Assembly (NCBI GenBank): GCA_018302705.1
Contig: JAGVZI010000007.1
Location: 1,070-65,069 of the forward strand
Direction: 5' to 3'
From: Candidatus Woesearchaeota archaeon
Lineage (GTDB): Archaea > Nanobdellota > Nanobdellia > SCGC-AAA011-G17 > ARS1403
DNA: 64,000 nt
A program made the position numbers and the translations under genes. How positions within the stretch are numbered: the first letter of the stretch is position 1; the number at the start of each line of letters is the position of its first letter. The notes under the pieces were generated by a model. It saw only the letters and a list, made by a program, of their open reading frames with translations, was not told the DNA's origin and did no database searches. Below, piece by piece: positions 13,422-37,400 of this stretch.

Positions 13422-13573
13422 ACTCTATTTCAACAATGCTTAAGAGTATATAAAAATTGTTTAAATTTTAATGAAGTACCTATTATTACTAACATTATTG
13501 CTTATTTCGGGACACTATATAGCGCAGGCAAACAAATAATTTTATAAACAAAATTAACCAGTTTGAAGTTTAT

Positions 13574-13665
13574 GGGGCTGTGGTCAAGCTTGGTTACGAT
13601 TCAAGGTTTGGGACTCTTCAAGAGCAATTAACCTTGCGACCCAGGTTCAAATCCTGGCAGCCCCA
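13574..13665 (+). tRNA. tRNA-Pro(TGG) with 18-nt intron at 37/38 (13613..13630)
   Basis: Acceptor GGGGCTG/CAGCCCC, anticodon stem CAAGG/CCTTG, T arm CCAGG-TTCAAAT-CCTGG. Confidence 0.9.
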
Positions 13666-13721
13666 TCTCAAAAACCAAAGTTTTTTAAATAAAATCTCGG
13701 AGAGTTAAAGGGAGTTAAATA

Positions 13722-16554: not shown

Positions 16555-17553
16555 TTAAGCAAACCCAATTAATCCTTTTTCAAGCAGTTCTTCCCAGCTT
16601 CTTTTACCAACGACAACGCTTGCTTCCCTTGAATTAATAATTGGTTTCCCGTATCTTTGATAGTCTTCAATAGCAATCCTGGGGCAAGCAGTGTCAATAA
16701 AAGCATCCACGTCATAAAAATTCATCAGCCCGGGATTAAACTCATTAACAACAATTATTATAACTTCCTTATCTAGCGTCTCAAGCTCATTTTTTAACTT
16801 CTCGGCAGTTTTCATATTATATTGTCCTATTTTATTGTCGACAACAATCCCTATTTTCCTAGCTCTCTTAACCTTGTCAATTGCAATCGCTCTCTGTTTT
16901 ATGGTTTTATCTCTTTCTCCATTCATCAGCTCCAAATTATTTGATTGCTCATCTAATAAGTACACATCTTTATCAACGCACATCAACGCAGCTCCAAGTG
17001 AATGGAATTTATTTCCAATCACCAAGAACCCGTCAATCTCATCCTCAACGCTTTTCAAGGAATTATACTCGCATCCGACAACGTGCCCATTATAAGCGGA
17101 AAATCCTTTCTTTTTTGGGATTACAACTTTCTTTCCTTTGCTTTCTAAATATTTTTTTAGGTCTTCAAATTGCTTAATATACTGTACACTTCCGACTAAT
17201 CCAATCCGGTTCATATTTAATTTATCAATGTTTTTGTCTAATAAACTCACAGCATCTAATTTAGAATATAATTCAACATACAAAACAGGAAAATCAGTTC
17301 TGACAAAGGGAGCATGCCCGAAGTGAATCAGCAAGTCTGCATTTATTTTCTTAGCCTCGTCAACAGCTAAGTCACAGCCACCCCAGCAGCTTGATCCGGA
17401 AACAACGACTTCACCATCGGTATTTTTCTGTATAAGACCCGCAATTCTAAAAGCTTCTTTTTTCATGCCCTCGGGTAATTGCAATAAAATCTTCTTTGCA
17501 TTCCCCTCCTTAATTTCTTCGACAATCCTCTCTTCTTCAAAATCATATTCCAT
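16555..17553 (-). CDS. dph2: Diphthamide biosynthesis enzyme Dph2
   Basis: LQLPEG, CWGGCDL, HFGH, VGC and TACPRI; three Fe-S cysteines present. Confidence 0.93.
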   Translation of the reverse strand: MEYDFEEERIVEEIKEGNAKKILLQLPEGMKKEAFRIAGLIQKNTDGEVVVSGSSCWGGCDLAVDEAKKINADLLIHFGHAPFVRTDFPVLYVELYSKLDAVSLLDKNIDKLNMNRIGLVGSVQYIKQFEDLKKYLESKGKKVVIPKKKGFSAYNGHVVGCEYNSLKSVEDEIDGFLVIGNKFHSLGAALMCVDKDVYLLDEQSNNLELMNGERDKTIKQRAIAIDKVKRARKIGIVVDNKIGQYNMKTAEKLKNELETLDKEVIIIVVNEFNPGLMNFYDVDAFIDTACPRIAIEDYQRYGKPIINSREASVVVGKRSWEELLEKGLIGFA

Positions 17554-28793: not shown

Positions 28794-29375
28794 TTACGGC
28801 TTCACCCAGCTGGAATTCCAGTAGCTCACATCTCCCTCATCGTCGACAACAGCAAGCAGTAAAGTTTTGCGAGTGCTGTGCGCAACTCTGTTCTTGGCAG
28901 AAAACTCATATAAAGTCAAAGTTTCAGTTTCATGCAGAGGATAAACAATCCATTTGGCATGATCATCGCCAGGCTTTATCCCCTTGTCATACACTCTAAA
29001 GTCAGCTCCGAATTTTAATGCAGTTTTTACAATATAGCCGCGCTGCCTCAAATCCCTAAAAACACAATATCGAATCCAGAAATTCTCCTCAATCTTCTCG
29101 CATATTTTCCTAAAGGCATCTATCTTGATCCCCTTTCCTTTAGCATCTTTCAATATCAGCCTTTTCCTTTCAAGCAGATGCAGAACCTCAACCAGGCTAT
29201 ATTGAATTTTATCCTCTACATATTCTCCATATCTGCTTTTATTATATAAGTCAACAGCCTCGTCTGATTTGTCAGCCAAAACCCTTTCTTTAGAAAAGAC
29301 AGCTTTAAACTTTTTTACAGTCTTCTCTTCTTCTGCTTCTTTCGCTTCCTTCTGTTCCTTCTGCTTTTTGCCCAT
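28794..29375 (-). CDS. endA: tRNA-intron endonuclease catalytic subunit (short, single-unit type)
   Basis: LRQRGYIVKTALKFGADFRVY, DDHAK, RVAHSTRK; likely ATG at 29375 (193 aa). Confidence 0.92.
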   Translation of the reverse strand: MGKKQKEQKEAKEAEEEKTVKKFKAVFSKERVLADKSDEAVDLYNKSRYGEYVEDKIQYSLVEVLHLLERKRLILKDAKGKGIKIDAFRKICEKIEENFWIRYCVFRDLRQRGYIVKTALKFGADFRVYDKGIKPGDDHAKWIVYPLHETETLTLYEFSAKNRVAHSTRKTLLLAVVDDEGDVSYWNSSWVKP

Positions 29376-33473: not shown

Positions 33474-33525
33474 AACAGCTAATCCTCTATCTTTTTGTCC
33501 TTACCTTTTCCTAAAAGGTAAGAAT

Positions 33526-33676
33526 GCGGGGATGCCGGAGTGGTCAAACACGAAAAACACAGAAGTGGACCTAACGGGCTAGGTTCAGGAAGAAAAAAAG
33601 AAGGCTGAGCTTAGGCCTACGCTGTGAGAAACCTAGTGGCTTAGTGCCTTCGCAGGTTCGAATCCTGTTCCCCGCA
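33526..33676 (+). tRNA. tRNA-Leu(CAG) with introns at 21/22 (33548..33573) and 37/38 (33590..33630)
   Basis: Removing both gives an 84-nt type II tRNA: acceptor GCGGGGA/TCCCCGC, D stem CCG/CGG, anticodon arm CTAGG-TTCAGGA-CCTAG. Confidence 0.88.
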
Positions 33677-34420
33677 AATCATTATCAAAAAAATCCTAAA
33701 CCACACAAAAATAAAAACTCCTAAAAAACTTCCGAGCAAGGAAATCAGCCAGTTGTTAAAAAGCTCGACAAGGTAGGAGCTGGCAAAAAGTAAAGCCCAT
33801 AATGATAAAAAGCTGGGAATAAAAATATAAAATTTCTTTACCGCCAATTTTATCCCTTTCAAAAAAGAATTAAGCACCTTATTATCAAGAGAAAAGTAGC
33901 TGAGATTAATCCAAACAAAGTAAAAAAACAAAATTAAAACCGCAGCAAACCTTCCATAACTAAACCCATATCTATAAAGTAGATAAAATGCACCGGCAAA
34001 AACCAAAAACCAGATTAGAGTAAGCAGGTAAAAATTCAGAAAGTATTTCAGATTATAGTCATGAAGCAGTTTTTTCTTATCAACAATGTTGGCACTCCAT
34101 TTCCAGAGAATGCCGTGAAAGAACCCGAAAAGAACAAAAGTAATTGCAAAAAACAAAATGGCAATTCTAAAAATCTTGCTCAGCAGCTCAGAAAGATAAA
34201 CCAAGCTCCTATATATATAGCCTGCATCAGCCCCTTCTTCAACAACGAATTCATCCTGGAAAGTTCTCAGTTCATTCATCTTTTCAGAGGCAGAAGTAAT
34301 GCTAACCATGGCGCTAACTGCCATCAACAGGAAGAATAAAAACTCCAATCCATATACGGCAAGAATCTTCTTATTATTCAATATTTTCCAGCTTTCCAGA
34401 AATAATTTTAAAAATTTCAT
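33641..34420 (-). CDS. Polytopic membrane protein (about 6 TM)
   Basis: Hydrophobic segments throughout; last codons overlap the tRNA-Leu 3' end antisense. Confidence 0.75.
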   Translation of the reverse strand: MKFLKLFLESWKILNNKKILAVYGLEFLFFLLMAVSAMVSITSASEKMNELRTFQDEFVVEEGADAGYIYRSLVYLSELLSKIFRIAILFFAITFVLFGFFHGILWKWSANIVDKKKLLHDYNLKYFLNFYLLTLIWFLVFAGAFYLLYRYGFSYGRFAAVLILFFYFVWINLSYFSLDNKVLNSFLKGIKLAVKKFYIFIPSFLSLWALLFASSYLVELFNNWLISLLGSFLGVFIFVWFRIFLIMICGEQDSNLRRH

Positions 34421-34427
34421 ATTAAGT

Positions 34428-37400
34428 TTATGTCGAAGCAACAGCGGTTAATTCTCTTCTCCAGGCTTCTGCATGTCCTAAAACAGCAGGAACATAATTC
34501 TGCGTTTCAGATGGCAATGAAGATTTGCATTCATTAAAAGGTTTACTTTGACATTTGCTATTAACCTTAGTTGGTCCAGCATTGTAAGCAGCCAGAGCTA
34601 ATTCAATGCTTTTATATTTGTCAAGCTGAATTTTGAAATACCTCACTCCAATGTAAACATTATCCTTCCAATTTGAACGGGATTTCTCTGGTGCAAATGG
34701 ATTTTCTGCAATTAATTCTAAGTTAACATCGGCCTCAGCATCGGGCATTATCTGCATCAATCCAACTGCCCCTGCTGGAGATCTTGCTTGTTTATTTCCT
34801 CCAGATTCTTGAGTAATCATTCCCAAAATCAAAGGCAATGCATTCTCATTTCCAAAAACCTCATTCACAGTATTCTTAATATAAACATAAGTTTCACCAC
34901 CAGGATTTTTAGTTTCTGTAAAAACCCCCCCAACTGTAGGTTCAGTAGAATACTCTTCTTGAATTTCAGGTGTAACAGGTTGGGCTGGGGCCGCAGGAGT
35001 AGCTACTGCAGGAATTACCTCTTTTCTAAGCACACATCTCCCATCCTGGCAGGCACTTCCTTCAGGGCAAAACACAGTCTCGGCAACACATTGTTCGCTT
35101 ACGCAAGAATACTCAATCAATTTTCTATCGCCATCGCTCCCGCAAGCCTCTCTCTCAACTTTAACACCGTTATCAGTATATATGCAAGCCTGTTTCTTTC
35201 CAATGTCTCTTCCGCCAAAGTCATTGCATCCGGAAAATGCAGGATCGTAAATCACAATGCTTTTTTCTTTTATTGAATTCGTAGTTCTGCTAGTCGCATC
35301 AGTGCATATCTGATCGCTCAAAGTTCCGCTTTTAATCAGGCTGAATTTTAGATTGTATTGATCCGTAGGAGGAACATCAACCCCGATTCTTGCTTCAGGA
35401 ATATTCCACACATTGAAATTAAGCCCGTCTTCAATATCATGCGCAATAAACCTCTTAGTTTCTCTAAAGCCACTGGCCCTGCCAAGGATTTCAACCTTGA
35501 TTTCAACATCTTTCTCAGGCCTTTCTATATCAATTAGATTTTCATTAACAACCTCTATCTTGTCGCCATATTTATATGCAGGAATATCAGAGCTAGCACC
35601 TTTAAAAGTAATATCCTTATTAAACACAGCCCTGCAATCACTCTTAACAGTTTCGCTGCTATAAGCAGTTCCTAAATCAGCAACATTAGGATCAGTTCCC
35701 TCTCTAAACTCCCTTACATTCGTTCTTCCATCTCTGTCATTATCTAGCAGGGCATCGTTTGCATCATTAGGATTCAACTTATTAGCATTCTCCCAATCAT
35801 CACTCATTCCATCTTTGTCAGCATCAGCAAAGTCATCCTCACCATATCCAGTAAGCTCTGCTATTATTCCGCTTCCTCCTCTTCCAGGAGGGAAGCAATC
35901 CTCTTTGGCTTCACTAGGAATATTAACGCAAGCCTCTGTGTAATCAACTTTATCCAAAAACTGCAGATACCCGCTGTCATGATCTCCTGCTCTGTCAAGG
36001 AAGATTTCTTTATTTAATAATTGGCTTCTTCCCCCGCCGGGATTCTTTAAATAAATCTCATACCTCATATTATCCCTTCCAGCCAATATCATCCAGTCAA
36101 TTTGGTATTCAAACACAGGCTCCTTCAATGGAGTTATATGACTCACTTTGGAATTCCAGTTAATGGAAACACTAGTCCCGATAAAGGGCCTGTTCAAATC
36201 AAAGTTTGCAAAAGTATCAATATTAGGAAGCCTTTTGTATATTGCCAATGAGCAGATAGTTTTAATAATCGGCAGTTCTGCATATCCAACACCGCCGCCA
36301 GCCCCGGTCCTGGCAAGCTCAGCCAAATCTCCTCGAGCAAATTCCTTGGCATCATCCTTGCCTTGCTTAGCAGCCCCCTTTAAACTGTCAGCTTCCCTTG
36401 CCTCCAAAAGCGAACCTTCGATTCCAGCTCCACCTAAGTTATTAGCAGATCCACTCCCAAACAATTTACCAAAAGCCTTTTTAATAAAACTAGTCCCGAA
36501 GAAAGCCTCTACTTCTTGTGTAACAAAAGTACAAATTCCATAATTCAATAATCTATCGCACTGCCCGGTAAATTTTCTTCCAGCCCTGGCATCATTCAAG
36601 CAGAAATTCCATTCCTGAGCAATCGCTCTTAGCTGATATAATTTAGTTAATATCCCACTAATGCAACCGCAACCAACACTCAAAAGCAAACTATCTTGGA
36701 TTCTCGTTGCTCCTTGTCCAAAAGTTATTGGTTGATTAATATTCTTCGGAATTCTTCTATCAGTTCCAGAAACAGTTTTTATTTCCCCCTTCTCATTCGT
36801 CTCCCAAACAGGCGTTTCCTTAATCCCGTCATTGTCCAAATCTAGTTTCTCCTGAATCTCCTCGGTTCCAATTTGAATATTCGCAACCCTGCACCAGTTC
36901 TTAGGGCAGACAGCAACAGCGCACATGCTCCTTCCAGAAATTACAAAGCTATTGCTTTCGCTCCTGCCTCTAGTTGTAAATGCAACCCCCCTCAAACCCT
37001 TAGGTCCGTACCAAATAAAATCAGCAAGGTCAAAAAAATTGCCTGCAAAATACTTTATTATCGGAGTAGCGAGCTTAGCAGCAAAAACAGCAGCAATGGA
37101 ATAAACGCACAGTTGAAAAGTAAGGCTGAATGCTTTTTCAAATTTAGGAATTAAATCCTCTGTGAATTTTATAATGTCTTCAGATAATTCAAGCCCGGCA
37201 TCAAGCGCAAATTCAGGAGGCTGCACAGCAACAGTGTCTATCGGAATATTAATAGTTATTTGATCTATTTCAGTCGGATATACAGGATCACAGCCAATCT
37301 TCTTCCCATTTTCATCTCTTTTAACTATGCATTGATTAGTCCTGACAGTGCAAGTAGTTTCAATCTCATCAATCCCGCTTATCCTGTCAGAAGGCAAAGA

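Follow-up and report, generated by a model that had tools for sequence, protein, structure and literature searches.

A 151-nt locus in the genome of a Woesearchaeota archaeon from groundwater is, as far as can be judged by sequence comparison, probably the genome's only tRNA-Leu(UAG) gene, interrupted by three BHB introns at tRNA positions 21/22, 30/31 and 37/38. The introns (26, 26 and 15 nt) would divide the gene into four exons (22, 9, 7 and 46 nt), and each of them would offer the splicing endonuclease EndA a 4-bp helix placed between two 3-nt bulges and accompanied by one flanking helix. A single EndA, apparently of the alpha4 type, is expected to cut all six sites, and RtcB would ligate the exons into an 84-nt class II tRNA with G37 and A73. 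The sequence GTTCAGG at the 5' end of the second intron permits an alternative fold, in which the excision of a single 41-nt piece would lead to tRNA-Leu(CAG), possibly as a side product, but not as the main one. From these features we infer the cleavage itself, the order of splicing, and the oligomeric state and specificity of EndA.

Results

The gene and its detection

The window, i.e. the whole stretch of 64,000 nucleotides that was analysed, corresponds to contig C18 of the host genome, which comprises 34 contigs (851 kb) with an estimated completeness of 97.7% and which the names of homologues place in Woesearchaeota, a group of DPANN archaea. The earlier note had placed a tRNA-Leu gene on the forward strand at the coordinates listed in Table 1, and both its position and its strand are correct: the sequence runs from GCGGGGA to TCCCCGCA and includes a class II variable arm, a T-arm and A73. 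The gene is reported neither by ARAGORN nor by the Rfam tRNA model at their thresholds, and its T-arm alone gives a sub-threshold match to the Rfam model (E ~6). Only 25 tRNAs in the entire genome score above the Rfam cut-off, which suggests that many of its tRNA genes are disrupted.

The intron mode of ARAGORN, applied to the raw gene or after blind deletion of a first segment, gave inconsistent calls (CAA, Arg and others), which were discarded. Because this program positions introns regardless of the BHB motif, it was replaced by a search over all splicing paths under a uniform BHB rule, which demands two 3-nt bulges, a 4-bp helix (4/4 pairs, at most two of them G-U), cuts after the second bulge base and at least 2 bp in one flanking helix, and which allows up to four excisions. 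The spliced 84-nt sequence folds into a cloverleaf and matches the exons of relatives or intronless genes at 78-81 of 84 positions. Features such as these lie far outside what chance would produce. A pseudogene was ruled out, as the exons are identical at 84/84 positions to those of the metagenome lineage L088, with flanking DNA that is 72-80% identical.

Table 1. Features of the tRNA-Leu locus and the endA gene, in coordinates of the window.
Feature	Positions	Strand	Remarks
endA, 193 aa, single alpha unit, Lys-rich N-terminal tail	28794..29375	-	sole EndA homologue of the host
Perfect 10-bp inverted repeat with 3-nt loop, CTTACCTTTT-CCT-AAAAGGTAAG	33500..33522	+	separated from the tRNA 5' end by 3 nt
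tRNA-Leu gene, 151 nt	33526..33676	+	mature product 84 nt before CCA addition
Predicted exon 1, tRNA positions 1-21 (acceptor 5' strand, D-stem 5' strand, D-loop to GGTCAA)	33526..33547	+	
Predicted intron 1, 26 nt, D-loop position 21/22, type HBh'	33548..33573	+	
Predicted exon 2, positions 22-30, ACGGGCTAG	33574..33582	+	
Predicted intron 2 (UAG parse), 26 nt, position 30/31, type HBh'	33583..33608	+	
GTTCAGG, candidate alternative anticodon loop (CAG), 5' end of intron 2	33583..33589	+	if used as exon, would give tRNA-Leu(CAG)
Predicted exon 3, 7-nt micro-exon GCTTAGG, positions 31-37, UAG anticodon	33609..33615	+	
Predicted intron 3, 15 nt, canonical position 37/38, type hBH	33616..33630	+	
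Predicted exon 4, positions 38-73 (3' strands of the anticodon and acceptor stems, long variable arm, T-arm, discriminator A73)	33631..33676	+	

Two further features adjoin the gene. The inverted repeat upstream of it may be a leader hairpin or may terminate the gene that precedes it; in relatives, palindromes occupy the corresponding position, and their arms pair despite a different sequence. On the opposite strand, an ORF of 266 aa (33641-34441), hydrophobic and with no Pfam match, overlaps the 3' end of the tRNA in antisense orientation by 36 nt; the final 12 codons of this ORF are thus complementary to the T-arm and acceptor stem. Elsewhere in the window, a tRNA-Pro(UGG) gene (13573-13667, forward strand) has an 18-nt intron at 37/38 and is called Pro(GGG) or Thr(UGU) by ARAGORN, depending on the settings.

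The predicted intron in the D-loop

Exon 1 is identical or near-identical to the 5' ends of the intronless relatives L010, L022 and L023, which read GGTCAAACGGG at the D-loop site, and removal of intron 1 yields a D-arm identical to theirs. The intron itself (GGTCAA[ACACGAAAAACACAGAAGTGGACCTA]ACGGG) has the structure that the earlier note had described: it is 26 nt long and shows a GGTC/GACC helix, bulges AAA and TAA (with predicted cuts AA↓A and TA↓A) and an inner CAC/GTG helix, the outer pair being absent. The helix is present in the unconstrained minimum-energy fold of the transcript, with a pair probability of 0.44.

Relatives (L088, L016 and others) have inserts of 18-46 nt at the same site. 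When the four bases preceding the last two intron bases were compared with GGTC, 13 of 17 D-loop inserts paired at all four positions in the predicted register, and none did so at shifts of 1 or 2. In the same genome, the tRNA-Gln(CUG) gene (contig C4:24055-24156) carries a 26-nt intron at the same D-loop site, with GGTC/GACC and an inner helix of 8 bp. ARAGORN mislabels this gene as Leu, and likewise the tRNA-Trp(CCA) gene (contig C12:27982-28081), which has a 27-nt intron at 30/31 with the helix TGAC/GTCA.

Two parses of the anticodon side

The anticodon side of the gene can be parsed either as CTAGG-TTCAGG[41 nt]A-CCTAG, which gives the anticodon CAG, or as CTAG[26 nt]GCTTAGG[15 nt]ACCTAG, which gives UAG. 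The former contains the 41-nt second intron proposed in the earlier note (33590-33630, helix TTCA/TGAG), which is a valid parse leading to a perfect 84-nt tRNA-Leu(CAG), but the equally good latter parse had been overlooked. In the exhaustive search of splicing paths, the only top products were UAG with three introns and CAG with two, at an ARAGORN score of 120.1 each; the same two top products were obtained for L088, and UAG only for the orthologue in G003, a genome of the same genus. Both mature forms fold as cloverleaves, and the 3' splice site of intron 3 (33630/33631) is common to the two parses.

The two 3-nt bulges, the 4-bp helix and a predicted cut after the second bulge base are found in all three introns and also in the 41-nt alternative. 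In intron 2, GGCT of exon positions 25-28 pairs with GGCT at 33603-33606, forming two G-U pairs, next to an inner TTC/GAA helix and bulges with predicted cuts AG↓G and GA↓G. Intron 3 has the helix CTTA/TGAG, bulges with predicted cuts GG↓C and AA↓A, and the anticodon stem as its outer helix. The outer and inner flanking helices measure 0 and 3 bp in intron 1, 1 and 3 bp in intron 2, and 6 and 1 bp in intron 3, and none of the three has the strict hBHBh' form, which requires flanking helices of 2 bp or more on both sides. Since each of them has just one of the two flanking helices, all three are relaxed forms, HBh' in the D-loop and at 30/31 and hBH at 37/38, which supports the claim of the earlier note that the introns are relaxed BHB forms.

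The minimum-energy fold of the whole transcript pairs CTAGGTTCA with TGAGCTTAG and shows neither of the two anticodon-side motifs, and for this reason constrained folds of the unspliced transcript were used. They gave -48.7 kcal/mol for the CAG-type conformer, -46.3 kcal/mol for the 30/31 motif and -41.3 kcal/mol for the UAG-type 37/38 motif.

Leucine tRNAs of the genome and codon use

Four Leu-type 3' halves are present in the genome: GAG on C8 (intronless), CAA on C19 (introns at 30/31 and 37/38), UAA on C30, and the gene discussed here. CUA codons occur at ~9.5 per 1000 in long ORFs, and according to the standard wobble rules a CAG anticodon is unable to read CUA. With four Leu genes only and CUA codons at this frequency, the UAG anticodon must come from this gene; on the other hand, since the genome is a 34-contig assembly, a further Leu gene could sit in a gap. 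In the genomes G001 and G003, both of the same genus, the Leu set is exactly GAG, CAA, UAA and UAG, and a CAG tRNA-Leu gene was found in neither of them.

The tRNA-Leu(UAA) on C30 is represented by a 3' part (17170-17262, reverse strand), which begins in the D-loop region at the site of the relatives' intron and has its own A/T-rich box and 24-nt leader. A matching 5' part was searched for in all 34 contigs and none was found, and the gene is either a split (trans-spliced) tRNA or interrupted by an assembly gap. In the family and the order, tRNA-Leu with the anticodon AAG (A34) is common (L041 in G006, L043 in G007, L037 in G009, L089 and ~20 metagenome genes); it sometimes replaces GAG, and the gene often contains a UAG piece as well. 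To our knowledge, A34 tRNAs are unusual in archaea.

Orthologues and covariation

In many families of the order, a distance of 3-7 kb separates endA from a tRNA-Leu gene located on the same contig (28794-33676 in the window, and in G001, G005, G009, G010, G020, G022, G033 and G037), and this conserved neighbourhood is useful for calling orthologues. The contigs of the closest EndA homologues (P0002, P0008 and P0013) end before the tRNA-Leu gene. All the close orthologues found have either the arrangement CTAG[intron]GCTTAGG[intron]ACCTAG or a plain UAG loop, and the GCTTAGG micro-exon is identical in all orthologues that share the gene neighbourhood. In G003 the gene (L005) reads CTAG[19]GCTTAGG[12]ACCTAG, and the metagenome contigs L044-L053, which were retrieved via the neighbouring EndA gene, have the same two-intron UAG form. 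Related contigs originate from groundwater metagenomes (Hainich and JGI). In G001 the gene (L027) has a plain UAG loop and a single intron, at the canonical position; the sequence upstream of it matches the window, and EndA is encoded ~6 kb away on the same contig.

The helix at 30/31 covaries among related genes, with the versions GGCT/AGCC, GGAT/ATCC, GGAT/GTCC, GGTC/GACT, GGGT/GCCC (tRNA-Leu CAA of this genome), GGAC/GTCC, GGCA/TGCC (UAA genes) and TGAC/GTCA (tRNA-Trp of this genome), including a double change from GGCT/AGCC to GGAT/ATCC. In 97 distinct related Leu genes, positions 25-28 were compared with the tetranucleotide that ends two bases short of the intron's 3' end: 67 of the 97 candidate acceptor sites pair at 4/4 positions in the predicted register, against at most one in shifted registers. 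The GGCT/GGCT version found here is also present in the single-anticodon genes L012, L139 and L159, where removal of the intron is obligatory.

Between this gene and L088, GCTTAGG and GTTCAGG are each conserved at 7/7 positions, the remaining intron sequence being largely unalignable, and GCTTAGG, its acceptor helix and the inner TTC/GAA helix are intact in both. The nearest orthologues have ATTCAAA...TAAG where this gene and L088 have GTTCAGG...TGAG, and ATTCAAA is unable to form the loop. The difference comes down to four A-to-G changes, all of them also found in L088: one in the first base of the intron, one each at anticodon position 36 and at position 37, and one that turns TAAG into TGAG. 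Jointly they give rise to the CAG anticodon, to G37 and the pair 31-39, and to a helix strand able to pair with TTCA as well as with CTTA. Taken together, the orthologues of the neighbourhood, the Leu tRNA set and the use of CUA all favour the anticodon UAG and three introns over the anticodon CAG and two introns proposed in the earlier note.

The splicing endonuclease

EndA of the host combines the N-terminal and catalytic domains (PF02778 and PF01974) in one protein and is a single short unit, as had been noticed before, with one homologue in the genome. Searches of the 97.7% complete genome with Pfam models and with two beta-subunit models of NCBIfam revealed no second EndA-like gene, and phmmer, run in six frames with filters off, gave no second match below E 0.4. 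An order-wide search with PF01974 (E up to 1) gave a match in 38 of 41 genomes, including one single-contig and one two-contig genome, and, contig-end fragments apart, none of the 38 has a second copy above the family cut-off. The earlier note had left the choice between a second subunit encoded elsewhere and a broader specificity of the enzyme; the search of the genome spoke against the former, and, because no second subunit was found in the genome or in the 38 relatives, the latter is the option remaining. A strict-only specificity of EndA is also argued against by the relaxed forms of its presumed genomic substrates.

The best matches of EndA in the PDB are the alpha subunit of N. equitans (NEQ205, E 1e-31) and the alpha4 EndA of M. 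jannaschii (1A79, E 4e-31). The alignment with 1A79 is gap-free over 154 residues (residues 40-193), with the catalytic Tyr, His and Lys aligned and DDEGD placed against DADGD, an acidic loop which we take to be the dimer-dimer contact loop of the M. jannaschii structure. The specificity inserts (CSL/L1, ASL/L2 and the NEQ-type L3) are absent, the L3 type being likewise absent in 30 sampled homologues, and the Tyr-His spacing is 9 residues in this EndA and in M. jannaschii versus 15 in NEQ205. The enzyme appears to be of the alpha4 (homotetrameric) type. Its Lys-rich N-terminal tail is found, at ~20-45 residues, in nearly all sampled Woesearchaeota homologues, with ~22 extra Lys/Glu-rich residues here, and one might speculate that it has a role in RNA binding.

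Cutting of relaxed motifs could in principle be enabled by a second structural subunit, diverged or lying in an assembly gap, or by an unrelated helper protein, but we consider this improbable. The genome is 97.7% complete and not closed, and beta subunits are divergent, NEQ261 of N. equitans matching this EndA only at E 1e-10. However, the searches described above gave no second match in the genome and none above the cut-off in the matching genomes of the order save contig-end fragments, and the catalytic triad and the acidic DDEGD loop are present in one chain, as in M. jannaschii. The alpha subunit of N. equitans, which requires a beta partner, is without the acidic loop in the alignment.

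Possible alternatives: one gene for two tRNAs, or for tRNA-Leu(CAG) alone

The coexistence of two parses raises the possibility, which we regard as rather unlikely, that alternative splicing cuts one transcript in two mutually exclusive ways, giving either tRNA-Leu(UAG) or tRNA-Leu(CAG). On this doubtful but not negligible scheme, one route (route B) would remove three introns and give UAG, and the other (route A) would remove two, the 41-nt piece being excised together with the UAG micro-exon, and give CAG, with the 3' site 33630/33631 common to both. The balance between them might then be set by the pairing partner of TGAG (33625-33628), either CTTA or TTCA. The products score alike and are the sole top outcomes of the splicing-path search both here and in L088; TGAG forms four pairs, one of them G-U, with TTCA and likewise with CTTA, in contrast to TAAG of the single-anticodon orthologues, which pairs fully with CTTA only; GTTCAGG has been kept in L088 despite the diverged introns, and the conformer of route A is thermodynamically favourable. 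In addition, two anticodon pieces, each with a valid acceptor, were found in 12 of 97 distinct related Leu genes, in the combinations AAG+UAG, UAG+CAG or CAG+UAG. On the other hand, the ratio CUG/(CUA+CUG) is 0.557 here as compared with 0.539 in G001 and 0.483 in G003, both of which have the UAG loop only, and this spread tracks the GC content of third positions, so that the CUG share, no higher here than that content would predict, says little either way about an extra CAG tRNA. A CAG tRNA looks dispensable in G001 and G003, where no gene for it was found, and the bases after TTC are conserved also in the ATTCAAA group, where there is no loop. The arrangement is known in two lineages only: an exact search for the pattern CAG-then-UAG in 240 genomes of the order returned this genome as the sole match (0 of the 239 others).

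Some observations weigh against the UAG route as such, as the CAG-type conformer is at least as stable and leaves the cloverleaf intact, while formation of the 30/31 motif requires the anticodon stem to open in part; moreover, the 30/31 helix has two G-U pairs, and the four A-to-G differences make the CAG route workable. If taken to the extreme, the gene would encode tRNA-Leu(CAG) with two introns only, and GCTTAGG would be a relic within a 41-nt intron, which we find very hard to believe. The motif at the canonical position is valid, adjoins an intact 5-bp anticodon stem and belongs to the most stable of the conformers tested, and an intronless CAG gene located ~5 kb from EndA in G020, a genome of the same order, indicates that anticodons change in the lineage. 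Yet with only four Leu genes the CUA codons would be left without a decoder, the supposed relic, its acceptor helix and the inner TTC/GAA helix are all intact in two diverged lineages, and the close orthologues are all UAG. A gene for tRNA-Leu(UAG) with three introns remains the reading that we prefer.

Discussion

Known multi-intron tRNA genes of Thermoproteales, Korarchaeum, Nanoarchaeum and ARMAN-1/2 (PMC4033280, PMC4090602) resemble the predicted gene in their short introns, in the use of several positions including the D-arm and the anticodon stem, and in the relaxed HBh' and hBH forms. However, the EndA of those organisms is heterotetrameric or of the epsilon2 type, whereas the Woesearchaeota host has a single alpha unit, and one of the exons here would be just 7 nt long and hold the whole anticodon. 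According to a review of 2014 (PMC4033280), a tRNA gene has a maximum of three introns, which the three introns here equal but do not exceed. Among related tRNA-Leu genes, four or more inserts were seen in L028 (G001), L036 (G009) and the metagenome genes L092, L133, L120 and L076, laid out either as two in the D-arm plus 30/31 and 37/38 or as D-loop, 30/31, 37/38 and T-loop. These numbers are above the maximum given in PMC4033280, but one D-arm insert fails the simple BHB rule, and in the tRNA-Leu(UAA) gene of G001 not all of the four inserts were shown to fit it.

Exchangeable anticodon pieces that are joined to common pieces through BHB motifs and yield synonymous tRNAs are described, as PMC4033280 summarizes, for the tri-split tRNA-Gly of Caldivirga maquilingensis (Fujishima 2009) and for tRNA-Glu of N. 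equitans with its shared 3' half (Randau 2005). Those are separate genes joined in trans, with observed products (PMC4033280), in contrast to the two candidate pieces here, which lie in one transcript and of which the second may or may not be used.

Regarding the enzyme, the alpha4 EndA of M. jannaschii (1A79) likewise is encoded by one gene and has the catalytic triad and the acidic loop in one chain, but the substrates presumed here are relaxed forms, which the M. jannaschii enzyme reportedly does not cut. The (alpha-beta)2 EndA of N. equitans (PDB 3IEY) is the best PDB match by sequence and comes from another member of DPANN with disrupted tRNA genes, but a beta subunit was not found here and the basic L3 insert is absent (PMC3488258, PMC5829648). 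This insert, which precedes the catalytic His, is named 'L3' in PMC5829648 and corresponds to residues 90-98 in N. equitans (PMC3488258). In several lineages of DPANN, EndAs of the alpha4 type were reported by Kaneta et al. 2018 (PMC5829648) to be associated with markedly more disrupted tRNA genes, and, as that study links the two, the question of EndA specificity is already known. The same work predicted tRNA genes for a Woesearchaeota genome and concluded that the type of EndA subunit contributes least to substrate recognition (PMC5829648). What this locus adds is an EndA without even the L3 insert.

In PMC5829648, undetected disrupted tRNA genes were also proposed as the cause of incomplete tRNA sets in new DPANN and Asgard genomes. 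The tRNA-Leu gene described here is of this kind: as standard tRNA finders miss it, the genome seems unable to read CUA or CUG.

Use of the second route would mean that the anticodon of a tRNA is set by alternative splicing within one transcript. No description of tRNA alternative splicing within one archaeal transcript was found in the literature searched, and we know of no earlier case in which the anticodon of a tRNA is set in this way. It is conceivable, though we would not count on it, that the 151-nt transcript gives rise to two leucine isoacceptors, with all the cutting done by a loop-less, single-subunit EndA. The accepted rule is that relaxed motifs are cut only by heteromeric or loop-bearing EndAs, and a whole order with one M. 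jannaschii-like EndA gene and many HBh' and hBH introns would be a natural counter-example to it.
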